In this document: positions 36,139 to 52,248 of the stretch, piece by piece | How the letters are laid out: the number at the start of each line of letters is the position of its first letter | Position numbering within the stretch: the stretch's first letter is position 1 | Assembly: GCF_988243305.1 (NCBI RefSeq) | Contig: NZ_OZ547136.1 | Strand: one strand, 5' to 3' | DNA: 64,000 bases | Made by a program: the position numbers and the translations under genes | The notes under the pieces: generated by a model | Database searches by the model: none | Told to the model about the DNA's origin: nothing | What the model saw: the letters and a program-made list of their open reading frames with translations, nothing else

Positions 36139-37425
36139 TCAGGCTTTATTAGGTAAAGTATTTACCGAATGTGAAATCTTCACTGTCAGTGTAACAACTG
36201 CTGAACACAATAGCGTGGCTATCATAAAGATGAATGCACTGTTGTAACTTCCGTCGCTGCTTTGGATCAACCAGCCAATGACAGGGGCAGAAATAACCCC
36301 AGCCATCTGACCGCCAAAGTTAACGATACCTGATGCTCGCCCCATGATATTACTGGGAATAGTATCCATCAAAATGCCCCAGAACATTGCCATAGCGAAG
36401 AACATAAACAACGCTGAAACACATTGATAAACAACAGCCATATCCGCACTACTTACGCTGAAAGTCAAGTACAGGAACCCTGCAGCAATTACGGAAGTCA
36501 AGACATATAGTGTTTTACGTTGTGGTTTTAATTTATCTGAGCAATAGCCACCTAATAATGTCCCCCCAGCTCCAAATAGAAAGGGGATCGCAGCCATTAC
36601 GCCAGTTTTGGCCAATGAGAATTCACGAACAGTAATTAGATAACTTGGCAACCAAGTTGAAAAGCCCCAGAACGTAATATCAAACAAAAACCAAATGCAG
36701 GCCATCTGCCAAAGTACAGGCATCTTAAGTACATCTTTAAATGCAATATTACTTTTGCCTTGCCCCCCGTCCTGGTTATCTGATGCTAGCTCAACCAGAT
36801 CCTGCTGCGTTATTGCTGGATGATCTTTTGGATTATCACGGGTAAATAACCAGATACCCGCAGCAATAAATAAACCTGGTATACCCAATACGATGAAGAC
36901 CATGTGCCAGCCAAATGCACCGATAATGCTCGCCGCTACAACAACCGCCAGTGCTGGCCCTAAGGTGTTCACCGTAGACTGAATGGCTGTTGCGCGTCCT
37001 CGCTCTTTCGATGGAAAATAGGTCGAAATCATCTTCCATGAAGCTGACGGGAAACAACCTTCCCCTATACCAAAGAAGAAACGAACAATCAGCATTAACG
37101 GCAGAGCAAGTACCGCACCAGTAAGGCTGGTAAATATGGACCACCATGCAATACCAATGGCCATAATTTTCCTTGAGCCAAACTTATCGGCTAACATTCC
37201 ACCGGGAATCTGAAATGCAGCATAACCAATAAAAAAAGCACTAATAATTAAACCTTGTTGTGTTGTATCAAGATTTAAATCTTTGCCAATATAAGGTAAT
37301 GAAACACTCATGACCATTCTGTCGAGAAAAGAGAGTAACCATGCTAACCAAATTAAGGTCAAGACGGTATATCTTGCTTTCCAAAGTTTTGGTTTACCTA
37401 AAGGTAAAGATGTTTGTAGATTCAT
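36139..37425 (-). CDS. MFS transporter (428 aa)
   Basis: 12-TM-type hydrophobic profile; last gene of the sigma-54 operon. Confidence 0.85.
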   Translation of the reverse strand: MNLQTSLPLGKPKLWKARYTVLTLIWLAWLLSFLDRMVMSVSLPYIGKDLNLDTTQQGLIISAFFIGYAAFQIPGGMLADKFGSRKIMAIGIAWWSIFTSLTGAVLALPLMLIVRFFFGIGEGCFPSASWKMISTYFPSKERGRATAIQSTVNTLGPALAVVVAASIIGAFGWHMVFIVLGIPGLFIAAGIWLFTRDNPKDHPAITQQDLVELASDNQDGGQGKSNIAFKDVLKMPVLWQMACIWFLFDITFWGFSTWLPSYLITVREFSLAKTGVMAAIPFLFGAGGTLLGGYCSDKLKPQRKTLYVLTSVIAAGFLYLTFSVSSADMAVVYQCVSALFMFFAMAMFWGILMDTIPSNIMGRASGIVNFGGQMAGVISAPVIGWLIQSSDGSYNSAFIFMIATLLCSAVVTLTVKISHSVNTLPNKA

Positions 37426-37502
37426 TGTAATGTCCTTTGAGTGTAACTATCTATCGCGACTCTTTTGGTCGCGATAGATCAATAAGTATTTAACGTAATT
37501 TA

Positions 37503-39098
37503 TTAATATTCTTTTCTGATAACTTTACCGCTACAGGCATAACTTTCCGTACCATTAATTAAGGCGATACGTCCATTGACCATTACAAGTTCAATTCCTT
37601 CTGGATACTGATTTGGCTCTACAAATGTTCCCTTATCTGCAATGGTTTTGGGATCGAACATTACAATATCAGCCGCATACCCAACTTTAAGTAATCCCCT
37701 GTTTTGCAGACCTAATACTTCCGCAGGTTTGCCGGTCATTTTACGAATTGCATCCTCCCAACTTAGGCATCCCTCTTCACGCACATATTTGCCCAGTACA
37801 CGAGGAAAGGCTCCAAACACTCGAGGATGGGGTTTTCCTGCCCCCATTAAACCATCAGTACAGACGTTCTGCTCTGCACGACAGAGGAATTTAATAACGT
37901 GTTCTTCTGTCCCATAGAAATCAACCATTCCTACAGCGTTTTCTTCTTCAAGAAGCAAATCGAAAGTGGCGTTATAGGGATCTTTACCGCGTAATTCGCC
38001 TAACTGGACAAGATTCAAACCTACGGCATCCTGATTTTTGGCAGTTTTCACACTGGTGACAAAAATTTGGTCTAGACCAGCAAAGTCAATAAAGTTATCC
38101 CATCCTGGAATACCTTGCTGAATGTCGTCGATCATTTTTGCACGCAGTTCTGGCGAAGCTAGTCGTTTCAGCAATTTATCCGTTCCTCCGGAATGGACCC
38201 ACGGAGGTAGGATTACACCAAGCATAGTGCTACCTGCAACATACGGATATTGATCGTAAGAGATACGTATTCCCTCTTTCTGCGCCTGTTCCAACATGCC
38301 AAGCATTTGGTCAATAAGCCCCCAGTTTTTCTTCCCACATACTTTCATATGTGATATATGGAGCCACACACCACTAGCTTTGGCTATATCGATTAATTCT
38401 TGGGTTGAATTGATAATATCATCAGCTTCACTGCGCTGATGCACCACAAAGAGCCCATCATATTTCGCTGTGACTTTACATAATTCAATCAACTCAGCAG
38501 TATCGCCAAAGGCGCAGGGCATATAGATAAGCCCAGAGGAAAGACCAAATGCCCCAGCTTTTAACTCCCGCTCAAGGATTTCACACATCTTTGCGACGTC
38601 TTCACGGGTAGAAGGGCGACCATCAAGTCCCATCGCTTCCATACGTACATTACCATGCGGAACCAGATACGCTAGATTTGTTGCTGGATGGTGAGATTCC
38701 AATAGGTTTAGGTATCCATCGGTATTTTTATATTTCCAGTCTATTTTATCGGTATCACCGTCAAGTCCAGCAATATTTTTACGCCAAGCTGGAATATATT
38801 TCTCAGGTAGTGGAGCCAATGCGACACCATCCTGTCCAAGTAACTCAGTAGTAATACCTTGACGTATTTTTGCCGATAGTTCAGGATTTATAATGGCCGA
38901 TAAATCAGAATGTGTGTGTGTATCAATAAAACCAGGGCAAATAATTTTTCCGCTTGCATCAATAAATTGTTCATTCTTACCAACATCAACGTGGCCGATG
39001 GAAATAATATATCCATCATCAACTACCACGTCAGTAATTATGCCCGGACTTCCTGTTCCATCAATAACATTTCCATTTTTAAAAATTGTTTTCATCAT
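37503..39098 (-). CDS. Amidohydrolase, N-acyl-D-amino-acid deacylase (D-aminoacylase) family
   Basis: GFIDTHTH metal-binding motif and family-like N-terminus; start taken at MMKTIF with GGAG RBS. Confidence 0.8.
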   Translation of the reverse strand: MMKTIFKNGNVIDGTGSPGIITDVVVDDGYIISIGHVDVGKNEQFIDASGKIICPGFIDTHTHSDLSAIINPELSAKIRQGITTELLGQDGVALAPLPEKYIPAWRKNIAGLDGDTDKIDWKYKNTDGYLNLLESHHPATNLAYLVPHGNVRMEAMGLDGRPSTREDVAKMCEILERELKAGAFGLSSGLIYMPCAFGDTAELIELCKVTAKYDGLFVVHQRSEADDIINSTQELIDIAKASGVWLHISHMKVCGKKNWGLIDQMLGMLEQAQKEGIRISYDQYPYVAGSTMLGVILPPWVHSGGTDKLLKRLASPELRAKMIDDIQQGIPGWDNFIDFAGLDQIFVTSVKTAKNQDAVGLNLVQLGELRGKDPYNATFDLLLEEENAVGMVDFYGTEEHVIKFLCRAEQNVCTDGLMGAGKPHPRVFGAFPRVLGKYVREEGCLSWEDAIRKMTGKPAEVLGLQNRGLLKVGYAADIVMFDPKTIADKGTFVEPNQYPEGIELVMVNGRIALINGTESYACSGKVIRKEY

Positions 39099-39161
39099 AA
39101 TTCTCCATGACGATGTCACATGGTGACACCGCCTGTAAGGGAAGAGGTTTTATCTTTAAAT

Positions 39162-40346
39162 TTAACGGAGATATAGTGTCTGAATAATGCTGTAATAACC
39201 ACTGGCCGAACCGGTTAATTGCTCGATCTCAATGTACTCATCAATGGTGTGCGCCAAGTTTTCCCGTGAAGGTCCAAACCCAATAGTTTTGATCCCCGCT
39301 TCACCAGCATAGTGGCTTCCGTTTGTACAAAATGAGTACTGCGTGATGGTCGGTGAAAACCCTGCCTTACGAATACCAACCAACGCAGCTTGTACAAATT
39401 CATCAGATTCGTCAAACACCCACCCAGGGAAGAAACGCTCACCTTCAATAGTTGCTCCTGTGTAGCAGGACTCTTGGCCTACTGCGTACGAGACCCGCCC
39501 TTTAAACTGCGGATCGAGGATTGCGAACTCTGCCAGTACACGTTCCAGAGGTGCAATAACGTTTTCTTTCGTTTCTCCGACAAGCAAACGGCGATCGTAA
39601 GTTGCACGGCAGTAATCCGGCACTACTGATGCTCCCGGATATGGCGATGATTTAATGTCTGTTAACTCTAAAATTCCGGGGCCAAGTATCGGATGCATTG
39701 GTGGTACAATGGTACGAATTTTGTCAATTAATTGTGCCATTTTGTAGACAGCATTTATTCCTGCCTGTGGATTGGCTGAGTGAGCTGGTTTCCCAAATGT
39801 TTCGACAACAATTTCAGCGCGTCCACGCTGACCGATTTTCAGGTTTAATTCGGAAGCTTCACCGATAATTACGTAATCAGGTTTAAAACGTTCACTGACC
39901 AAGCGTGCCGCAACACCTTCAAAACACTCTTCATGGACAATACAGGCTACGTAAATTTTGCCGGAAAAATTACGCTGGTAATCCTGACCAAAAAAACCAA
40001 CGGCGGAGATCATAGCCGCAACAGCTCCCTTCATGTCGGTTGCCCCCCGACCATAAATTTTGCCTTCGTCAATATCACCGCCATATGGATTCCGAGTCCA
40101 CATATCTTCGTTTACAGGCACAGTATCAATATGCCCATCCAAAACGAGAGTTTTCCCTGGCTGATTGCCAATAATACCACCAATAATATTGCCATACTTA
40201 TCGATATGAATATCGTCAAACTGGTAATACTGCATCATATCTTTTATGGCATTCACTACATCCCCTTCCTGACCGGAATAGCTTTTTTGTTGGATCAATG
40301 TCTGACAATTTTTAATAACTTCTTTATAACGACTTGCAGATAACAT
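39162..40346 (-). CDS. M20-family metallopeptidase/deacylase (YgeY/ArgE/DapE-like)
   Basis: LDGHIDTVP and GRGATDMKG motifs. Confidence 0.8.
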   Translation of the reverse strand: MLSASRYKEVIKNCQTLIQQKSYSGQEGDVVNAIKDMMQYYQFDDIHIDKYGNIIGGIIGNQPGKTLVLDGHIDTVPVNEDMWTRNPYGGDIDEGKIYGRGATDMKGAVAAMISAVGFFGQDYQRNFSGKIYVACIVHEECFEGVAARLVSERFKPDYVIIGEASELNLKIGQRGRAEIVVETFGKPAHSANPQAGINAVYKMAQLIDKIRTIVPPMHPILGPGILELTDIKSSPYPGASVVPDYCRATYDRRLLVGETKENVIAPLERVLAEFAILDPQFKGRVSYAVGQESCYTGATIEGERFFPGWVFDESDEFVQAALVGIRKAGFSPTITQYSFCTNGSHYAGEAGIKTIGFGPSRENLAHTIDEYIEIEQLTGSASGYYSIIQTLYLR

Positions 40347-40378
40347 GGTGTTCCTCCGTTATTATTTAAATTAGAAAA

Positions 40379-41593
40379 TTACTGCTGAAGTACCGGATAC
40401 TGAGTCCCCCAGACAATATTGCGATATGATTCTGGGTCAGTGTCACCTTCAGTGCTGATTAGCAAAACACGGGAATGTGAATCCAGCCCCAACTGTTCAC
40501 GGGTTTGCCTAAATGTAGGGGAGGTCATCAGTAACGCCAGAAGCCCTGTGGTTACTGCCCCTGACTCTCCAGAAATAATCTGCGGATCTCCTGCTAACGG
40601 ATTTCCCAAAATACGCATACCCAACATTGCAACCTCGTCAGGACAGGAGGCAAAGGCTGTAGCATAGTCACGTAGCAGCTTCCAGCCGATACTGTTAGCC
40701 TCGCCACAAGCCAGTCCTGCCATGAGTGTCTGCAAATCCCCCCCTACTGCCACGGCATTTCCATCTTTCGCCAAGGCTGAGCGGTAGAGGCAATCGGCAA
40801 TTAATGCTTCTACAACGATTACTTTTGGACGATTATCCCCCCAAGCAGCAGTCACCATTCCCTGGACCATACCCGCAAACGAACCAACCCCCGCTTGGAC
40901 AAAGATATGTGTTGGTGCTACCTGATGGAGTTGAGCCATAGCCTCCAGCATCAACGTGCTATAGCCCTGCATGATCCATAGAGGAATTTTTTCATACCCT
41001 TCCCAAGCGGTGTCCTGAACAACAATCCAGCCGGATTTATCTGCCTGCTCTGCGGTCATTCGAACAGCATCGTCATAGTTCATATTGACAATTTCAGCCG
41101 TAGCACCTTCATTGCGAATTGATGACAGGCGTTGTTGCGAAGACCCCTTTGGCATATAAACTACTGCATTTTGCTTTAGCTGACGCGCCATCCACGCTAC
41201 TCCCCGCCCGTGGTTACCGTCAGTAGTAGTAGCAAAGGTAACTGTTTTCAGATAATGGCGCACATCGTCACTAGTCATGATATCAAACGACAATTCATCA
41301 ATCTCTTTCCCTAGTAATTCTGCGATATGACATGCCATGGCATAGGCGCCACCCAGCACTTTGAAGGCTTTTAGGCCAAAACGCTGAGACTCATCTTTGA
41401 GATAGATCTTTTTTATCCCTAATTTTTGTGAAAGCGCAGGTAATGTATAGAGCGGCGTTGGCTCGTAGCCTGGTATTGTCCGATGAAAATTCAATGCTTT
41501 TACCAGCTCATTGTGACTAAATGAAGCTAGTGGTGCGCTAGGTTGCTGAGTAAATTGTGTCTGGTTAATAAAAAAGGATATTTTTTCCTGCAT
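40379..41593 (-). CDS. PLP-dependent diaminopropionate ammonia-lyase-like enzyme (DpaL/YgeX family)
   Basis: Family-level resemblance to YgeX-type ammonia-lyases; first gene of the operon. Confidence 0.75.
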   Translation of the reverse strand: MQEKISFFINQTQFTQQPSAPLASFSHNELVKALNFHRTIPGYEPTPLYTLPALSQKLGIKKIYLKDESQRFGLKAFKVLGGAYAMACHIAELLGKEIDELSFDIMTSDDVRHYLKTVTFATTTDGNHGRGVAWMARQLKQNAVVYMPKGSSQQRLSSIRNEGATAEIVNMNYDDAVRMTAEQADKSGWIVVQDTAWEGYEKIPLWIMQGYSTLMLEAMAQLHQVAPTHIFVQAGVGSFAGMVQGMVTAAWGDNRPKVIVVEALIADCLYRSALAKDGNAVAVGGDLQTLMAGLACGEANSIGWKLLRDYATAFASCPDEVAMLGMRILGNPLAGDPQIISGESGAVTTGLLALLMTSPTFRQTREQLGLDSHSRVLLISTEGDTDPESYRNIVWGTQYPVLQQ

Positions 41594-41675
41594 GATAAGA
41601 CCTCATTGTACTGGTATCTCGCACCCTGTAATCAGAGAAATCCAAAGATGCCTTCTGTATGACTATTCACTAAAA

Positions 41676-41691
41676 AGCAAAATGCGTACCA
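41676..41691 (-). promoter_or_regulatory. Candidate sigma-54 (-24/-12) promoter for the dpaL-like operon
   Basis: Minus strand reads TGGTAC-GCATT-TTGCT (GG-N10-GC spacing) about 85 bp upstream of the dpaL-like start; sigma-54 activator encoded divergently. Confidence 0.5.
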
Positions 41692-41973
41692 GTTTTTTAT
41701 TAGAGTTAGTAAAAAGTAACATATATTTCTTTAACCTTTTCATTTCAATGAATTAGGAAGTCATTGCGTCATAATGAATCCCCCTCCCTAGTATTGGCCT
41801 TATTTCAATGCCTGATAAATTCTCATTAATGAGAATTTATGTGATCAATCAAAAGAAAATAATAAAAACACAAATAAAACATATAGATATATTGATCTTT
41901 TTCAAGTAAATTTTTCCTAATATCATATAATTTCTCATTTTTCTGAGAATTTTATACTGACTGGAGGAGAACC

Positions 41974-43719
41974 ATGATTTCAGTACTGAGAAACATTCAG
42001 GATGATATATGTAATTATGCCGATGCTATCTCTGGCATAATCGGAACTGATGTAGAAATCATTGATGAGTCATTAATGCGCATAGCTGGTACAGGTCAAT
42101 ACAGGTATATGCTCAATGAGAGTGTGGTAAAAAATGGTTACATTTATCGGCATGTATTACAGGTACGAAAAACAGTTCTGATCACAAATCCAGGAGAACA
42201 TCCTCTCTGCCAGTTATGTGAGAAAAACCATTATTGCTCGGAAATGTTAGATTTGAACACACCCATTTTTCTCAATGAGCGTGTCATCGGAGTCATTGGA
42301 ATTATTTGCTCTACCCAGACACAGCGTAAAATCTTGTTGAACCAGATTGATAAATTTATTACCTTTATTGAGCAAATTGCTGCGATGATTTCCAGTAAAG
42401 TCTTCGAATGTCTGGAACGCCTGCGGGCCCAAGAAACTCTCAGTACATTTCGTCGATTGATTGATGCGATGGATCGCGGTGTTGTAGCTATTGATGGTAA
42501 GGGCCGAATCTGGCACGCTAACAACTCAGCCGATCGCATACTTAACCGCAAGGTTCAAGGTATTACGTTAACGATTGAAACAACCGGGGACATTCTATAT
42601 GGAGATGAAGAAGCATGGTTGACGCTGGAAGGAGAAAGATACCATGTGTTGTGCAAACAAATTTCTCTTTCCTCATTAGATAATGATCGACTCACCATGA
42701 TTATCTTTCGTGATGCACATGACTATCTGAGCACAATAGTTTATCCTTACGAATCTGATGCTCAAGTGCGATTAATTGGACATTCACCACTAATGGAACA
42801 ACTCAGAAGCACCGTTAGAAAAATCGCCAGTAGTTGTGCCAGCGTACTGATCACCGGAGAAAGTGGCTCAGGTAAAGAAGTTGTGGCATTTGCTATTCAT
42901 CAGAATAGTCCACGTAAATCCGCTCCTTTTGTAACAATCAACTGCGCTGCAATCCCAGAGCAACTGCTGGAAAGCGAGCTATTTGGCTACGTGAAGGGGG
43001 CATTTAGTGGGGCGAATCCTAAAGGACGTATAGGTAAATTTGAACTGGCCAATGGGGGAAGTCTCTTTCTCGATGAGATCGGAGATATGCCGCTCCATCT
43101 GCAGGCCAAGCTGCTTAGAGTTCTTCAGGAAAAAAACATTACCCGCGTTGGCTCTAATAATATTATCAATATTGATGTGCGCATTATTGCTGCGACCAAC
43201 AAAAACATCCGTGAAATGGTTGAGAGTAATCAGTTTCGAGAAGACCTTTATTATCGCCTGAATGTGGTTCCTCTAGTAATTCCTTCTTTACGGGAACGAC
43301 GGACTGATATTGCCCTCCTTGCACAATATTTTGCTGATGAGTTCTCTGAAAGCTATCAACGTCCAGTGAAAAAACTCCCCGATGATATAATTAACCATCT
43401 TTACGCTTGGCACTGGCCTGGTAACATCCGTGAATTACGTAATGTCATTGAGTATATTTTTGTTATGCGTGGTGAAACTACTGATATCAACGTCAGCCAT
43501 CTTCCCCCTTATCTGCTCAATGTAGTGGACAACAGCAAAACTGTTATGACAATCAACACCAAGCAGCTACTGAGTCAGGGAAGACAAGCGGAAAGGAGGG
43601 CAATTGAAACTGCATTACAACGATATAGCCCAAGTGGAGAGGGGAAAAAACAAGCTGCCGCTGAATTAGGAATAAGTATTGCTACACTATACCGAAAGAT
43701 AAAACAATATGGTTTATAG
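41974..43719 (+). CDS. Sigma-54-dependent transcriptional activator (YgeV-like)
   Basis: AAA+ Walker [15 protein letters not shown] and ESELFGY sigma-54 interaction motifs, C-terminal HTH; GGAGGAG RBS. Confidence 0.85.
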
Positions 43720-43948: not shown

Positions 43949-44835
43949 CTACACTTTAGCCAGCCCATGTTTTCCACCGGGAAATGGGCTGACGGTATCC
44001 ATAAAGTGACGAACCTTTTTCAACAACTGCCACATTGAACGGCACTGGTGATTTCGGGTTACTGTCTCATGAAGCGCCTGCCATAACCGTTCGATATGAT
44101 TGACCCACGGCGAGTAAACCGGCTGATAAATTATCCTGAACTTCGAGTTTGCTTTCAGCCAGCGCAACGTTTCACGGCTTTTGTGGATGATGTAGTTATC
44201 GACAATGAGTGTAATCGTTTTTGCCCGCCGGTATGTCGCTTTCAGGTGTTTTAACAGACTGATAAATAAGGACGAACCTTTACTGTTCCCACCAACGTAG
44301 CTGACTTTTCCCGTACCGCTGTGCAGCGCACCGGCAAGATAGTACTTTTCATTCTGACCCGGCGTGACAACGCGCTTTTGCTGCCCACGTAGCTGCCAGC
44401 CTGCACCAATTTTGGGATTGAGGTGAATATCCACTTCATCTTCGTAAAACACGGGGTTTTCCGCACAGCATTTCGCCAGTGCTTCATGAATAGCGACCAT
44501 TTTTTCTTCTTTGTGTGGGTCACGGATACGCAGTGTCGGCGCAGTTCTCCGCCATACCAGTCCGGCAGCAGGCAACCAGCGGCATATACACTCGGCAGGT
44601 AATGATTTGTCCATTAACACCCGACTGCGTGAACCAGTTAATCCAGGGTCCAACATAGGAACGGACTCAGCAGAGCATTCTAGCAACATCGCTGACACGG
44701 TGGAGCCATTGCAGTATCACCATAGCAGTCAGTCTGCGGGCATAATTTTTATCGTGTGTTTTGTGGATAGCTTTCTGTATCAGGTGTCGTTCGTTACAGG
44801 GAATTGGCTCTATGATTGGCATAGTTCAGTCCGGT
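43949..44835 (-). pseudogene. IS630-family transposase, decayed (frameshift and internal deletion)
   Basis: N-terminal MPIIEPIPCNERHLIQKAIHKTHDKNYARRL… in one frame, DDE part (…TITLIVDNYIIHKS…) in another, about 150 bp missing. Confidence 0.75.
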
Positions 44836-47179
44836 TGGTGATTTGTTTTAATTTGTCGATTGAACAAACGCACAATCCGGGCTGAGTTCCCTCAAAGTGA
44901 TCTACTATTCCGTGCAGCTATTTAGATCAAGGCTAAGGCAGGAATTTTATGTAATTAATGCTAGAGGTAAACGTTGTGGGTAAATGGTTTGCATGGTTAA
45001 TATTTAACCATAAGGAATAAGAGGTATTGCAGAATTAATTCCGTATAGTTATTCTTCTTGTAAGAAGATTTTTGGGTGCTAGTGATAAATTACAGAGCCT
45101 ATAGAAATGTAAAGTAACAAATCACAGAATAAGGATACAATAGCATAATTTATTGTCACACAAAGCCCCAAGACATTCTGTAATAAAAGGAATTTCCATA
45201 AGAAGAACCATTGACAATAATATGAGCACCACCATTGTAGAGATATTTATTTATGACTGAAAAGGAACTCCAAAATTTGGCTATTTCTATATATGAAAGG
45301 CAACGAGAGAAGTTATCACGTGAGACAGAGTGTAATAAATCTACCTCAATAAGATTTGCCCTAGAAGATTTCCTAAAGAATGCTCCGAAACGTATGCGAT
45401 CTGCGCGTGCTCGCCCCCCAGGGTAATAAATGTCGCAAACTCTGATAATATTTTTATGAAAACAAGCATATTTACAAACGTAAACTAATGATTCTAATTT
45501 GACAGAATATAAACTATAAGTATTAATAAATACCATACGGAGCAGAAAAAAATATCAAAATGAGTTAATTTGATTAGAAAGATTTATCCCATTTATAAAG
45601 ATAATTGTAGAAAGATTCATTGACTCTAAGAGCAAATAAGGAGAGGGCATACAGGATATAACTAGTACTCATAATAAAAATCCCTCTACCGATATAAGTA
45701 AAATTTATTTCCCAGACGAGTTTTTAATAATACATATCAGAAACAGTGCTAAACGATGGGCCGTAATCCTCATGAATAGTAACTCATGGTTATTTTACAC
45801 TGGATTATCGGTGGGGTAATTCTGATAATAGAAACACCTGAAAAACTAAAATCATTAATTTTAAAATACAACCATATACTCATCAAACTCTCGATACACC
45901 ATTCTTCTTTTAAAGTAAAGAAAAACTCTATCTGTGCTTATGTTCCACAACATAAATAGAATAAAAAAATTAAGGATTTATATATTAAGAGTGAATTTAC
46001 ATTTTAGGCTAACTTTAGTACATATTAATTATTGTTTCTTATTAATTTTAAACTTCAAAAGCTATATCAAGGGTTGCCACTTCTATCTGCGACTAACAGC
46101 ATATCTATCAGCAACAATTGATTAATTCCAGCACCTCATGTCGGCGCGATCTGGTGGAAAAGCCATTCCACCAAAACAACCCCAAGCGCTGGCACGTTGG
46201 GGAGATCTGCACTGTGAACCAGCTGGCAATGAGCCGCTTTATTATCGAGTTCGGTGACCGCCTAGACGGTCACTTCTGAGAAAAGGCATTTACACAGAAT
46301 CCTAAACCGGCTCGCAGGTTTCCCCCACTCCCCATCCGCACTCAAGTTCAGACGGCGAATAACATAGCTAATCAGCTCATTACGGAATGACTACCATCCA
46401 GATAGTGTGCCGCAGTTTAAGGTTCGGTCAACCGCTTTTTAACCATTCAGCATTGCCTACAATACAAATAAGGAGCCTTATATTATGCCTAATCTCTGTA
46501 TGCTGCATAGTGCCGGGTGCCTCCCGGTGAGTCCAGCCTGGTGTCTCTGAACCCGCATAGAAAGGATTAGGGTAATATAAAAACAAACACCTGTTACTGA
46601 TATGCTCCGCCGCTTAGGGGAGTTCACCATACATTTTTATTTTTAACAAAAAAGCTCAAGGCGACAATAATAAATACTATAAAATGTGAGCAGCATAACA
46701 TTTTAACTTAGTAACTAATATTCACTAAACTTACCAATTCACATACGCCCCACGGCATGGCAAAGCTTCGTTACGTTAGTTTATACCACATAGGTATTAT
46801 TACCAAACTAAATAATCACTTTACGCTCTGTATTTTGCCTGTTTTCACTGCGGTTTTTCTCAATACCCCGTCCAGAATAACGTTAACACATTATTAACTT
46901 AAATCCGGAGAACATGATGATGACTGGATTCAAACACACTTAACATGAATATCCTCTATCCATTAAAATAACTGTCATTGAGCCGGTTGAAAAAACGAGA
47001 TGAACTATAAACAGATCTAGCAGTGGCATGGCTGGCGAATGGCGTTATCAATCCACTGCCTTTACTGAGTGCTGAATATCCCTTCACTGACCTGGAAGAG
47101 GTGCTACGTTTCGCCGGTGATAAAACCCAGGCATCAAAAGTCCAGCTTGTTTTCTTAGAGATAAATAAAGGAATAATAC

Positions 47180-47863
47180 AATGAACAAGCAATTTTCACT
47201 GGCAGAAAAAATATCTTGATTACCGGATCAGCACAGGGCATTGGCTTTTTACTGGCAACCGGTCTGGGTAAATATGGCGCACAAATAATTATTAATAATA
47301 TTACTGCCGAACGCGCATAACTTGCTGTAGAAAAACTCCACCAGGTGGGTATTCAGGCCGTTGCCGCACCTTTTAATGTTACTCATAAACATGAAATTGA
47401 TGCCGCCGTTGAACATATCGAAAAGGACATCGGCCCCATTGATGTGCTGGTGAATAACGCCGGTATCCAGCGCCGTCATCCTTTTACTGAGTTCCCTGAA
47501 CAAGAGTGGAATGATGTGATCGCAGTAAACCAGACCGCCGTGTTCCTGGTGTCGCAAGCGGTAACCCGTCACATGGTTGAACGCAAGGCAGGTAAAGTTA
47601 TTAATATTTGCTCGATGCAAAGCGAACTGGGACGTGGCACCATCACCCCTTATGCCGCATCGAAAGGGGCGGTAAAAATGCTCACCCGCGGCATGTGCGT
47701 CGAGCTGGCGTGCCACAATATTCAGGTCAACGGTATTGCGCCGGGCTATTTCAAAACAGAAATGACTAAAGCACTGGTTGAGGACGAAGCCTTCACCGCC
47801 TGGTTGTGCAAGAACAAATTTCCATTGCGGGTTTTTATGGGCTGGAGATTGGCAGGCAAATGA
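47180..47863 (+). pseudogene. idnO: Gluconate 5-dehydrogenase idnO pseudogene (frameshift, in-frame stop, 3' truncation)
   Basis: MNKQFSLAEK… then frameshift; …ITGSAQGIGFLLATGLGKYGAQII… and a 172-aa ORF match IdnO; C-terminus diverges. Confidence 0.8.
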
Positions 47864-47865
47864 TC

Positions 47866-48003
47866 CCAAGCCTCGCCAGCGTAATTACTCCCCGTTTTGA
47901 TATTGGTCGGATGGCCGCCCAAATGTTGCTGAGCAAAATTAAGAATAACGATCACAACACTGTTGACCTCGGGTATCAGATTTATCACTGTAACACGCTT
48001 TAG
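47866..48003 (+). pseudogene. LacI-family regulator 3' fragment (possibly idnR)
   Basis: …SLASVITPRFDIGRMAAQMLL… is a LacI-type C-terminal signature; follows idnO as in the idnDOTR operon. Confidence 0.45.
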
Positions 48004-48745
48004 GTTATTTTCTCTTCATTACACGTATTCTCTTTGCCGGACGTTGCCTATACTCCAAGCAGGAAACTGGAGGAAATCTCATGAGCGCCTCCCTGTTAAT
48101 TGCCCGCATGCCAATACGGTGGGGTGGGATATCTTTGGCGAGAAAGGCCATCCGGTGCGGGCAACGGTTTCAGACCTAGGGCCACTGTTGCTGGCGTGGC
48201 TGTTGAATCTCAACGATGTGCAGTCTGGCGTGCTGGATATCATTTTCCGCATTGCTGATGATCAGGGATTGTTGCTGCTCGACTTTAAAGATCTGCGGGC
48301 AATTACCCAGTACATCGGCGATAACGCCAAATCCTTCCAGAATCAGTACGGTAATATCAGTAGCGCATCGGTTGGTGCCATCCCGCGCGGATTACTGTCG
48401 CTGGAGCAACAAGGCGCAGAGCATTTCTTTGGCGAGCCGATGCTGGATATCAAAGACTGGATGCGCACCGATACCAACGGTAAAGGCGTTATTAATATCC
48501 TCAGCGCCGAGAAGCTTTATCAGATGCCGAAACTGTATGCAGCCAGTCTGCTGTGGATGCTCTCGGAGCTGTATGAACAATTGCCGGAAGCGGGCGATCT
48601 GGAGAAACCAAAACTGGTGTTTTTCTTCGACGAAGCGCATCTGCTGTTTAACGATGCAGCACTGGTACTGCTGGATAAGATTGAGCAGGTGATAAGGCTT
48701 ATTCGCTCAAAAGGCGTTGTCGTCAGAACGGCTTCCCCTGTGTGA
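47990..48745 (+). pseudogene. yjgR: yjgR internal fragment (DUF853 ATPase)
   Basis: …[26 protein letters not shown]…[18 protein letters not shown]… matches the middle of YjgR; both ends missing. Confidence 0.7.
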
Positions 48746-49263
48746 CAAAGCCATAGCTCAGGTGCGTGCGGTCCGCACGGCGCGGAGCCTGAGGGCTTCA
48801 CGGCGGAGGATATGCGGACCATCGGGCGCTACCTGCACTGCGAGGCGAATTGGAACATCGACTCGGACTTGAGCCTGTGAGGGGGGCCGTCCTCGGGAGA
48901 AGTTTTTCTGCGAAATAACTATGCGCCGACGGACGAACACTCGTTCGTGTGGCCTATGGCCCAGGGCAAAGGCTGGGGGGCCCCTATTAAGTTGTCAAGA
49001 ATGTTTATTACACCAGCGGGGTATAAAAAGTACCGTCACGCATCATGGCGAATAGAACGTCGCAGCGCCTTGTTCACAGTGTTTTCACTCGTGGTTATCT
49101 GTACCCGTGAATATCAGACCATTGTCACCAGCCCATGCCTGTAATTCTGTCAGAATGGCTACAGCCTGTTTGTTGGGTGGTACAAGATGCAGTGCCCTCT
49201 GGTTCCCTCTGATGAGAGTCCTGGCGGGGTGAACAAATAAAAAAGAAAACATAAATAAAACCA

Positions 49264-49292
49264 TCCGGCTTTTGGGGCCGGATGGTTATTCA
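49264..49292 (-). terminator. Rho-independent terminator downstream of the integrase gene
   Basis: AACCATCCGGC-N7-GCCGGATGGTT hairpin followed by a T-rich run on the minus strand. Confidence 0.6.
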
Positions 49293-49321
49293 TTATTTCT
49301 GTGTCACTGAATTTTCATTCA

Positions 49322-50503
49322 TCAGGTCTGCTCAGAAAGTGAATCAATGTAGTCAGCGTACCATTGCATCATTTCACGGCGACCATCGAGATACTGTGCG
49401 TGGTTATAGGTACCGCGCATGATGTTTTTATCAACATGGGCAAGCTGGAGTTCAATCCAGGCAGAGCTGAAATCATGGTCATGGAGAATGGTACTGAAAG
49501 TATGCCGAAAACCATGAGCTGTAGTGAATGTATGCCAGCCAACTTGTTGAAGAAACTCATTGATGCAACCACGGCTACGAGGTTGATTACCCCTGTATAC
49601 ACCAGGAATAACCAGATCTGAGTTACGGGGATTTGTGATTATTTTTATATCTTTCAATAACATTTGAGCCTGATGAGAAAGAGGAACAACATGCGGCCTC
49701 CGCATTTTCATTCTCTCTTTTGGGATTACCCAGAGGGCATTGGTAAAATCAATTTCATCCCAAGTAGCCAGGCGTAATTCTCCCGTTCGAACAGCAGTCA
49801 GAACCAGTATCCGCGTTACCAGAGACATAAAATTTCCTGAAACTTTCATTTGGTACATGAAAGCTCCTAACTGTTCTTCAGATAGCATCCGTCTCTGCTG
49901 TTTTTCAGGATGCAGAACAACACTGCTGAGAGTCGATGCTGGGTTAATAGTGGCGCGCCCCGTCGCAATGGCATAATCAAATATTTGAGAACAGAGCTGA
50001 CGAGTCTTACGTAACGCTTCAAGTTTGCCATTCCTTTCAATAACCCTCAGTGCATTCAATATTTCCAAGGGGCGAATATCAGCCACAGGACGCTTCCCTA
50101 GCGTGGGATTAATATGATTCTCGAATCTTGCACGCTGGTCCGCTAAATAACCCGCAGTCCAACGACAAGCCATATGTGTGAACAACTCTTCTGCAAGAGT
50201 ACAAAATGTGCATGCAATACTTTCTCTTAGTGCATGTTTACTCGCCTGTTTTTCATATGAAGGATCTTTTCCTTCAGCCAGGAGTTTACGTGCGTCATCC
50301 CGTTTCTGACGCGCCAGAGCCAGTGATATGCCTGGATAGACACCAATCACCAATTTCTTTTCTTTACCCGCAAATCGATACTTCAGATTCCAGTAACGAG
50401 CGCCAGATTTCTTGATAAGAAGGTAAAGTCCTTGACCATCAGAAAGTTTGTAATCCTTGTCAGCGGGTTTGGCCGACTCAATTTGTCGAACAGTAAGTGG
50501 CAT
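49322..50503 (-). CDS. int: Tyrosine integrase, P4-type
   Basis: 393 aa; N-terminal …KLSDGQGLYLLIKKSGARYWNLKYRFAGKEK… and C-terminal HGFRHTF…LAHVD…Y catalytic signature; 177 bp from the right junction. Confidence 0.9.
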   Translation of the reverse strand: MPLTVRQIESAKPADKDYKLSDGQGLYLLIKKSGARYWNLKYRFAGKEKKLVIGVYPGISLALARQKRDDARKLLAEGKDPSYEKQASKHALRESIACTFCTLAEELFTHMACRWTAGYLADQRARFENHINPTLGKRPVADIRPLEILNALRVIERNGKLEALRKTRQLCSQIFDYAIATGRATINPASTLSSVVLHPEKQQRRMLSEEQLGAFMYQMKVSGNFMSLVTRILVLTAVRTGELRLATWDEIDFTNALWVIPKERMKMRRPHVVPLSHQAQMLLKDIKIITNPRNSDLVIPGVYRGNQPRSRGCINEFLQQVGWHTFTTAHGFRHTFSTILHDHDFSSAWIELQLAHVDKNIMRGTYNHAQYLDGRREMMQWYADYIDSLSEQT

Positions 50504-50521
50504 GATGTTAACTCCGAAAAG

Positions 50522-50542
50522 TAGCCCCCAGAGTAGCCCCCA
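50522..50542. repeat. TAGCCCCCA x2 direct repeats just upstream of the integrase start (candidate arm sites or operator)
   Basis: Same motif and orientation as the pair at 647..669 at the other island end. Confidence 0.45.
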
Positions 50543-50680
50543 AAATCATCTTGATGCTCATGGAAGATGGTTTACATCCAGAGTAAAAGAATTTCTGATA
50601 ATACCTTATTTTAACGTGTGTTAAAGGGGATGAAGAGAGTTCTGTTGAAATCAGTCGAAATAAATAGGGCTTAATAAATC

Positions 50681-50694
50681 CTCCCCGCCGGGGA
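50681..50694. repeat. 14-bp direct repeat CTCCCCGCCGGGGA, right island junction (att core)
   Basis: Identical to 576..589. Confidence 0.75.
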
Positions 50695-51493
50695 GTGCTG
50701 GCTGGAACGCCTGCGACTGGCAAAAACGTTGGGCTTCGATTTTGTCGAGATGTCGGTAGATGAAACTGACGAGCGCCTGTCGCGCCTCGACTGGAGCCGC
50801 GAGCAGCGTCTGGCGCTGGTGAATGCGATTGTTGAAACCGGCGTGCGTGTGCCGTCCATGTGCCTTTCTGCCCATCGTCGTTTTCCGTTGGGCAGCGAAG
50901 ATGACGCGGTGCGGGCGCAGGGGCTGGAGATTATGCATAAAGCCATCCAGTTCGCCCAGGACGTTGGCATTCGCGTGATCCAGCTGGCGGGCTATGACGT
51001 TTACTATCAGGAAGTCAATAACGAAACGCGTCGTCGTTTCCGTGACGGCCTGAAAGAGAGCGTTGAGATGGCAAGCCGCGCGCAGGTGACGCTGGCGATG
51101 GAGATCATGGATTATCCGTTGATGAACTCCATCAGCAAGGCGCTGGGTTACGCGCACTATCTCAACAACCCGTGGTTCCAGCTCTACCCGGATATCGGCA
51201 ACCTGTCGGCGTGGGACAACGATGTGCAGATGGAGTTGCAGGCCGGAATCGGGCATATCGTCGCGGTACATGTGAAAGACACCAAACCTGGCGTCTTCAA
51301 AAACGTGCCGTTTGGCGAAGGTGTAGTGGATTTCGAACGTTGTTTCGAAACGCTCAAACAGAGTGGCTATTGCGGGCCGTACCTGATTGAGATGTGGAGC
51401 GAAACGGCGGAAGACCCGGCGGCAGAAGTGGCGAAAGCGCGTGATTGGGTGAAAGCGCGCATGGCGAAAGCGGGCATGGTGGAGGCGGCATAA
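50681..51493 (+). pseudogene. ulaE: ulaE 3' portion (L-ribulose-5-phosphate 3-epimerase lacking its first about 14 codons)
   Basis: Resumes …[24 protein letters not shown]…; in-frame stop immediately upstream in island sequence; first Met at 50729. Confidence 0.85.
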
Positions 51494-52179
51494 TGCAAAA
51501 GCTAAAACAGCAGGTATTTGAAGCCAACATGGAGCTGCCGCGCTACGGGCTGGTGACCTTTACCTGGGGCAACGTCAGCGCTATCGACCGCGAACGCGGG
51601 CTGGTGGTGATCAAGCCCAGCGGCGTTGCCTACGAAACCATGAAAGCGGCCGATATGGTGGTGGTTGATATGAGCGGCAAGGTGGTGGAAGGGGAGTATC
51701 GCCCATCTTCCGACACTGCGACGCATCTCGAACTCTACCGTCGTTACCCGTCGCTTGGCGGCATTGTCCATACCCACTCCACTCATGCCACCGCATGGGC
51801 GCAGGCGGGGCTGGCAATTCCGGCGCTAGGCACCACGCACGCCGACTACTTCTTTGGCGATATCCCGTGCACGCGCGGATTAAGCGAAGAAGAGGTGCAG
51901 GGCGAGTATGAACTGAACACCGGCGAAGTGATTATCGAAACGCTGGGTGACGCCGAGCCGCTGCATACGCCGGGGATTGTGGTGTATCAGCACGGGCCGT
52001 TCGCCTGGGGGAAAGATGCTCACGATGCGGTGCATAACGCGGTAGTGATGGAAGAAGTGGCGAAAATGGCGTGGATTGCGCGCAGTATTAACCCACAACT
52101 GAATCACATCGACAGCTTCCTCATGAATAAACACTTCATGCGTAAGCACGGTCCTAACGCTTATTACGGGCAGAAGTAA
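51493..52179 (+). CDS. ulaF: L-ribulose-5-phosphate 4-epimerase UlaF
   Basis: [45 protein letters not shown]… class II aldolase-type epimerase; start overlaps ulaE stop. Confidence 0.9.
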
Positions 52180-52248
52180 AACACGCGCTGCGGAAATTTC
52201 CTTCTTCGGGAGATAACTGGTCTAATTCCGCAGCCGTTTTTCAAAAAA

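Follow-up and report, generated by a model that had tools for sequence, protein, structure and literature searches.

A decayed fragment of the Escherichia idn-yjgR region beside the integrase of a ulaE-inserted genomic island

An island inserted in the ascorbate gene ulaE of an E. coli-type chromosome carries, adjoining its integrase gene, a remnant of about 1.7 kb that is collinear with the E. coli segment idnD-idnO-idnR-yjgR. In the 64-kb stretch of DNA that we analysed (the window) it occupies positions 47020-48724, as determined by BLASTN against the leuX-idn-yjgR locus of E. coli SMS-3-5 (L001), which also served as the reference for base-by-base alignment. We regard it as likely that the remnant is a non-functional fossil of Escherichia chromosome, joined illegitimately to cargo of the ulaE island, trimmed by deletions and carried passively. 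A preliminary description, made from the sequence alone, had proposed that the island previously sat at, or recombined with, a leuX-type locus.

The island is about 50 kb long and divides ulaE in two. The gene ulaD is found at 3-524 and the 5´ part of ulaE at 534-589; foreign DNA follows after 589, and the remainder of ulaE (ulaE´) starts from 50695, followed by ulaF and by rpsF onwards. Core repeats and the integrase are placed as follows:

576-589 and 50681-50694: attachment core, 14-bp direct repeat CTCCCCGCCGGGGA; the copy at 50681-50694 is the integrase-proximal one.
648-670 and 50520-50542: paired arm-type repeats, near both island ends.
49322-50503, minus strand: P4-family integrase, ulaE-specific, with Pfam domains Arm-DNA-bind_3, Phage_int_M and Phage_integrase.

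Uninterrupted ulaE of SMS-3-5 has the core in a single copy, CTCCCCGCCGGGGAG, which is 15 bp long and palindromic save for its centre base. The integrase protein is 97% (97.2%) identical to the ulaE integrase of JNEC-KY203, 51% to a selC integrase and 35% (34.6%) to the leuX integrase of SMS-3-5. Given an attachment core within ulaE and this integrase kinship, the element belongs with ulaE islands rather than with leuX islands. Pathogenicity islands of E. coli, namely papGII+ PAIs, have been described in the ula operon (Biggel et al. 2020, PMC7686366). Both traits of that site are present here: insertion between ulaD and ulaE with an integrase at one end, and core repeats at both ends that are single in the empty site. 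Like the published islands, ours lies beside its integrase and is a large mosaic with a CP4-type distal module, which forms its left end (DUF4942, CbtA/CbeA and others). Unlike the papGII+ PAIs, it carries sialic-acid and sigma54-regulated amidohydrolase clusters, and no pap genes were seen in the window.

The distal two-thirds of the island (812-35678) match selC-site islands of E. coli BR1220 and YL3 at 98-99.7% identity. In this part lie the CP4-type module, genes for dynamin, patatin and RdcB, IS66, a group II intron and the cluster for sialic-acid catabolism. The ulaE island is thus demonstrably hybrid, with modules shared with islands at other sites. The integrase gene or its module appears to be mosaic as well, its DNA being collinear with that of the selC island of E. 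coli strain 164 and the proteins only 51% identical.

Alignment of the remnant to SMS-3-5 resolved three collinear blocks and placed four novel junctions. Block 1 (window 47020-47811, L001 4830-5622; 97.6% identity, E=0) holds the idnD 3´ end and idnO codons 1-210. Block 2 (window 47806-48112, L001 8001-8313; 95.2%) comprises the last ~200 bp of idnR, the intergenic region and 31 bp of yjgR, and block 3 (window 48104-48724, L001 8549-9172; about 93.3-93.9%) is internal yjgR. Read from left to right, the idnD 3´ end is followed by idnO, by a gap in which idnT and most of idnR are gone, by the idnR 3´ end with the adjoining intergenic region and the beginning of yjgR, by a second gap of 235 bp, and by internal yjgR of about 0.6 kb. 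The gene parts are:

47020-47157, plus strand: idnD 3´ end, last ~45 codons, 97% identical to L001 4833-4967.
47182-47811, plus strand: idnO pseudogene, codons 1-210 of 254, 97.8% identical to L001 4991-5622.
47806-48003, plus strand: 3´ end of idnR (LacI family), ~65 codons, matching L001 8001-8204, with a 6-bp in-frame deletion.
48004-48112, plus strand: native idnR-yjgR intergenic region and the first 31 bp of yjgR, collinear with L001 8205-8313.
48104-48724, plus strand: internal yjgR fragment, approximately codons 90-297 of 500, L001 8549-9172.

The intergenic region is native and collinear, and idnR and yjgR were therefore captured as a single contiguous piece. The idnO pseudogene joined to a LacI-family 3´ end, with idnT missing, had already been recognised in the preliminary description and was borne out by BLASTN, by base-by-base alignment and by Pfam (adh_short at 47345-47863, a weak Peripla_BP_3 match at 47806-48003, HerA_C at 47963-48745). 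The yjgR fragment reported downstream of it is indeed there; it proved to be two pieces, the first being the 31 bp at the start of the gene, with the 235-bp deletion between them. The extent proposed originally was 47180-48745; the remnant starts ~160 bp earlier, at 47020, so as to include the idnD 3´ end, and ends at ~48717-48724.

Orthology and native order of the GntII (L-idonate) cluster are preserved, idnD´, idnO and idnR´ being 95-98% identical to E. coli and the adjoining yjgR 93%. Its reading frames are not intact. The idnO gene has a 1-bp deletion at ~47203, a GAA>TAA stop at 47318-47320 and a missing 3´ end; idnD and idnR are reduced to ~45 and ~65 codons, and sensitive BLAST with the SMS-3-5 locus found no trace of idnT, idnK, ahr or lptG in the 64-kb window. 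The GxxxGxG NAD-binding motif of idnO lies 3´ of the frameshift and 5´ of the stop codon. In yjgR the Walker A motif GATGTGKT (residues 30-37) falls in the 235-bp deletion and the C-terminal ~200 residues are gone too, and the fragment consequently lacks the P-loop core of a HerA-like (DUF853) ATPase.

Two truncated open reading frames nevertheless cross the remnant, a 172-aa SDR-like chimera of idnO and idnR (47345-47863) and a HerA-like fragment of 208/260 aa ending at 48745, and both are called as genes in several assemblies. Retention of these frames for some function would agree with the complete identity of the remnant sequence across hosts; the flanking junk is conserved as well, at 99.4-100%. 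Substitutions in the idn part fit neutrality, with 9 non-synonymous and 5 synonymous differences between idnO and L001 4991-5622, and one variant island (L116, below) has the region disrupted further. Because the NAD-binding motif and Walker A are lost from these products, and the native C-terminus of the SDR fragment with them, we hold a retained function to be very improbable indeed.

All four junctions carry short imperfect homology (roughly 5-12 bp) to both parents, and none of the four coincides with an IS end:

47015-47023: J1, IS-type orfA fragment to idnD´; GCAGT..ATGGC common to both parents.
47806-47811 (overlap of blocks): J2, idnO to idnR; GTGC(A/C)A; removes 2,378 bp, that is the idnO 3´ end, idnT and the 5´ part of idnR.
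235-bp deletion within yjgR: J3, yjgR 5´ piece to yjgR internal piece; CCGCAYGCC.
~48717-48724: J4, yjgR to a tle1-like gene; GGCGTNGNCGTC.

This pattern suggests successive spontaneous deletions, and would mean that a longer molecule once carried the chromosomal piece and the Tle1-like gene in collinear arrangement.

The remnant is set in a patchwork of gene and IS fragments that extends over 44.9-49.3 kb (IS256, IS4, STnc100-like, orfA, Tle1-like and a truncated second integrase, int2´). Its immediate neighbours are:

46867-47019, plus strand: IS-type HTH/transposase orfA fragment, 81-82% identical to genes annotated 'transposase' or to 'helix-turn-helix domain-containing protein' pseudogenes.
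48722-48977, plus strand: internal fragment of a Tle1-like (DUF2235) T6SS phospholipase effector gene, 91-93% identical to Tle1-like genes of E. coli plasmids and of the DETEC-P1056 ulaE island.
49000-49264, minus strand: int2´, C-terminal piece of another tyrosine recombinase, sharing 79% identity with the truncated integrase of strain 164 over 49093-49240.

The orfA fragment abuts the left end of the remnant, and further to the left follow the STnc100-like element, IS4 and IS256 fragments, AT-rich DNA and IS630. Such surroundings invite the explanation that insertion sequences moved the chromosomal piece, either as a composite transposon or by one-ended or IS-mediated deletion and fusion, and were lost later. 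Fragments of IS256, IS4 and an IS3-type orfA, together with IS630, stand immediately to the left, and the variant L116 displays fresh activity of IS3-family and IS110 elements in and beside the remnant. The ends of the remnant point elsewhere, however: J1 falls inside the orfA coding sequence and J4 in the interior of the Tle1-like gene, both at short homologies and neither at an IS terminus. On this evidence we judge an IS-mediated move quite improbable. The orientation of the orfA fragment was also considered as a marker of a former island end and was rejected, as an IS fragment can take any orientation.

Several minor features of this patchwork may be recorded. The STnc100 match (Rfam, 103 bits, window 46464-46662, minus strand) belongs to an sRNA family associated with prophages and PAIs. 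Other assemblies (L005 13900-15150) have two diverged STnc100 copies around 1,037 bp and the window a single recombined one, an arrangement that is consistent with deletion between direct repeats. The stretch 44900-47019 is AT-rich (about 36% G+C); its part 44900-46200 gave no informative match, and a 126-aa ORF within it (45156-45536, minus strand) has only a sub-threshold match to LRR_5.

Next, we compared the substitutions in the two halves of the remnant. In idnD´, idnO and idnR´, 15 differences from E. coli are non-synonymous and 5 are synonymous, and they are distributed across the codon positions. In the yjgR fragment, 27 of 37 differences are at third codon positions, and 28 are synonymous against 9 non-synonymous. 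The non-synonymous density is ~1.5% in both halves alike. These figures indicate neutral decay of ~2% since inactivation, which suggests that the remnant is old and that its capture would be old as well. The additional ~4% of synonymous divergence in yjgR is that of a different functional allele.

Comparison with 5,425 E. coli genomes that match the yjgR fragment gave 92.3-94.2% identity, the nearest allele reaching 94.2%. A donor of yjgR outside E. coli was considered and rejected: allele classes of E. coli yjgR are themselves ~6% apart (native loci L001, L096, L097, L098 and L017), the remnant represents a third class, and yjgR of E. albertii differs from it by 11.5%. The donor is therefore an Escherichia with an unsampled yjgR allele and not necessarily another species. 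Its allele was not found in the E. coli genomes, in JGI metagenomes (an exact 30-mer scan gave no match) or in the genome-contig scan, where five Enterobacteriaceae were among the matches listed and neither E. fergusonii nor the cryptic clades were among them; this counts against the explanation that we favour. The preliminary description had named greater similarity to non-chromosomal paralogues as a finding that would speak against it. No plasmid-borne or other non-chromosomal copy closer than 93% was found, and most of the plasmid matches were mislabelled chromosomes. As a side observation, the idn cluster varies by only 0.2-0.3% between strains and is missing from 20AR0354 and E. albertii (gene order leuX-ahr-yjgR). 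The cluster looks like an insertion of recent spread next to a gene, yjgR, that is old and diverse.

We then examined the remnant in other hosts. It is 100% identical in eight island-carrying assemblies, bar one mismatch in one of them. The ulaE´/ulaF flanks (window 50760-52200 against L004-L011) differ by 2.3-4% among hosts with near-identical islands, and the neighbouring gene content varies. (In the same hosts rpsF-rplI are 99.4-99.9% identical, diversity at the insertion site being unusually high.) Within the assembly collection, 116 blocks list the exact integrase and 49 the exact 172-aa ORF; the ten places shown from these 49 blocks all have the ORF adjoining the ulaE integrase at ula.

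Moreover, the island is found in both orientations. Its integrase lies beside ulaE´ in the window and in most assemblies, and beside ulaD in L009, L010, L110, L117 and DETEC-P1056. At 9740-10010 of L009 and L010 the same island end is joined to the 5´ part of ulaE instead of the 3´ part, and in the complete genome of DETEC-P1056 (L130/L131) both ends of the ulaE island are in the opposite orientation. The near-palindromic 15-bp core probably permits either orientation, and their coexistence implies bidirectional integration or in situ inversion by a tyrosine recombinase. Because the remnant is identical across differing ula flanks and in both island orientations, it is a passenger of the island.

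These comparisons also bear on the idea that the leuX-side locus of the host was scrambled in place and is not island-borne at all. Rearrangement of the idn-yjgR region does occur: in Shigella sonnei an inversion of ~20 kb starts at idnO (PMC12795559). The remnant, on the contrary, lies between the attachment repeats of the island, is the same in hosts that differ in flanks and island orientation, and has a yjgR allele that matches none from E. coli. Scrambling in place is effectively refuted, and we give it next to no credence.

Among the 5,425 complete RefSeq E. coli genomes matching the yjgR fragment, not one carries the remnant or has a second copy at its identity; its presence is a further difference between the island lineage of the window and the papGII+ PAIs. 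The island does occur in CP091409.1 and in a 5.15-Mb contig of GCA_040813565.1. Searches for exact copies of three proteins, the integrase, the sigma54 activator and the 172-aa ORF, retrieved identical copies and the variant L116, and neither a longer or intermediate remnant nor a reciprocal product; this absence counts against the chromosome-scrap explanation. The variant (GCA_002232755.1, 1939-6130) has an IS110-family insertion in idnR´ at window position 47896/47897, and an IS3-family element in place of everything left of 47172, with loss of idnD´. Erosion of the remnant is thus continuing. A literature search returned no description of idnO or yjgR remnants in an island.

What does the origin of these genes say about the past of the island? 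In SMS-3-5 the order is integrase (minus strand), tRNA-Leu (minus strand), ahr, idnK, idnD, idnO, idnT, idnR, yjgR and lptG, and idn/yjgR genes are found near leuX in E. coli, E. albertii, Citrobacter and Enterobacter sp. Ag1. It had been stated that these genes flank leuX. They are its neighbours; all of them, however, stand on one side of it, 2.1-7.9 kb off in SMS-3-5 and behind ahr and idnK, and in that strain this is the side opposite to the leuX island. The observation itself was confirmed: the island contains chromosomal idn/yjgR DNA, which closely follows the integrase on its downstream side and is not separated from it by a tRNA gene. ARAGORN predicted no tRNA gene in the 64-kb window, nor therefore in 48745-49320, where one had been suggested as a finding against the earlier reading, and Rfam over 44000-51000 returned STnc100 only. 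The interval 48745-49320 is not an empty attachment region, being filled by the Tle1-like gene fragment and the truncated second integrase. BLAST of the window with leuX yielded only chance matches of 12 nt or less, and neither a tRNA-Leu (CAA) gene or 3´ attachment fragment at the boundary nor a leuX-type integrase is present.

The island and the leuX islands (KpLE2 of K-12, those of SMS-3-5 and 20AR0354) do share a P4-family integrase and a CP4-like backbone, and the remnant genes are chromosomal neighbours of leuX. They differ in that ours has no leuX or attachment fragment and sits in ulaE, and in that the captured genes come from the non-island side. The proposal that the island previously sat at leuX accordingly received no direct support. 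It can be given a definite form: an ancestor, be it of the whole island or of the portion near the integrase, resided at leuX, took up flanking DNA by imprecise excision as in specialised transduction, and later acquired the ulaE integrase module. The idn and yjgR genes are neighbours of leuX in all Enterobacteriaceae examined, and modules are exchanged between islands at different sites. The order integrase - cargo - yjgR´ - idnR´ - idnO´ - idnD´, with strands relative to the integrase as in the native locus, would fit an aberrant circle (yjgR..leuX-integrase-cargo), and the geometry of the remnant is equally compatible with such a circle from a leuX island. This history nevertheless requires an additional swap of the integrase module and has to accommodate the missing leuX, ahr and idnK, the 35% integrase identity and an attachment site that is the ulaE core. 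Moreover, the selC integrase of strain 164 is likewise followed by a truncated integrase, and the annotations of L001, L096 and L098 show none after the leuX integrase. Taken together, we find a leuX-resident ancestor improbable.

Strain 164 is informative in another respect. Window ~49093-49330, with the integrase 3´ end, the terminator hairpin and int2´, is collinear with its selC island (L094 5675-7413), at DNA identities of at least 79%. In both, a 393-aa integrase is followed by a terminator and, directly downstream, by a truncated second integrase; they differ in the integrase (51%), in the attachment site (tRNA-Sec against the ulaE core) and in the absence of the idn/yjgR remnant from strain 164. 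Because of this common layout, int2´ looks like old backbone, unrelated to the idn/yjgR piece. Its extent outside 49093-49240 is extrapolated, and its match to the HGxR motif is weak. Having a similar truncated integrase directly downstream of the integrase in the selC island, we rejected int2´ as a clue to leuX.

The other half of the earlier proposal, recombination with the leuX-side neighbourhood, is plausible, though unproven, on account of the short map distance: measured from the ulaE core in SMS-3-5, yjgR is 76 kb away and leuX 84 kb. By our calculation a random fragment would originate within 85 kb on either side of the ulaE site with a chance of about 3.4% (170 kb of a 5,068-kb chromosome). 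Proximity is the entire argument for capture on one chromosome, which counts against that part of the explanation.

The history that we favour, that of a chromosomal fossil carried passively, may be outlined as follows. A contiguous piece of Escherichia chromosome of at least 4.3 kb, idnD-idnO-idnT-idnR-yjgR, would have been linked to cargo near the integrase of an island that integrates at ulaE, J4 being the surviving joint. That joint would have formed by illegitimate recombination at short homology, in our preferred reading between island cargo and the leuX-side flank of one chromosome, with a possible second, homologous crossover in the backbone modules common to islands at ulaE, selC and leuX. 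Three later deletions at short homologies would then have produced the junctions of IS-orfA´ with idnD´, of idnO with idnR and of the two yjgR pieces, and point-mutation decay of ~2% would have followed. Since then, the remnant would ride passively whenever the island's own integrase inserts the island into ulaE. Our data show the homology, the breakpoints, the pseudogene state, the borders and attachment site of the island and the sameness of the remnant across hosts; the order of events, and likewise capture on one chromosome, we infer. Against the explanation counts the Tle1-like gene, which is in the opposite orientation relative to the integrase in the sole complete ulaE island that carries it.

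A more specific version is that the remnant marks the junction of an exchange between a ulaE and a leuX island ~80 kb apart, illegitimate at yjgR::tle1 and homologous in the CP4-type backbone. We consider this unlikely. If true, an element mobilised by the ulaE integrase would have received chromosomal DNA from the leuX side, perhaps together with cargo of the leuX island, and the exchange would be a concrete, datable case of islands at different sites trading cargo plus core-genome DNA. The near-palindromic ulaE core, usable in either orientation, would then allow exchanges of both inversion and deletion type.

In specialised transduction by phage lambda, the gal or bio genes that flank the prophage are captured by aberrant excision. 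As there, chromosomal DNA was joined illegitimately to a mobile element and then travelled with it; unlike there, the captured DNA natively lies 76 kb away from the present attachment site and not next to it, and the attachment-proximal flank genes are missing. Genes from the surroundings of a tRNA site, present as a remnant in an island, do not establish that the island was ever inserted there.

For the ulaE island family the remnant offers a lineage marker, with four unique junctions that are invariant across hosts. Rough dating may be possible as well, since neutral decay of ~2% stands against zero variation among present copies, and this suggests old capture followed by recent spread. Where the host is idn-positive, the 0.8-kb idnO remnant has a native counterpart of 98% identity ~76 kb off and is therefore a potential substrate for inversion or deletion of a segment with essential genes. 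Otherwise, the remnant is an ordinary scar of a mosaic island, without function.

A last observation concerns the cargo. At 36139-43719 lie five genes, coding for an MFS transporter, an amidohydrolase, an M20 peptidase, a PLP-dependent enzyme and a divergent sigma54 activator, a cluster that presumably resembles the ygeV-ygeZ neighbourhood. None of 5,426 complete RefSeq E. coli genomes has this cluster, but 148 blocks of the assembly collection do; in one case (L103) its setting is another, and homology stops inside IS630.
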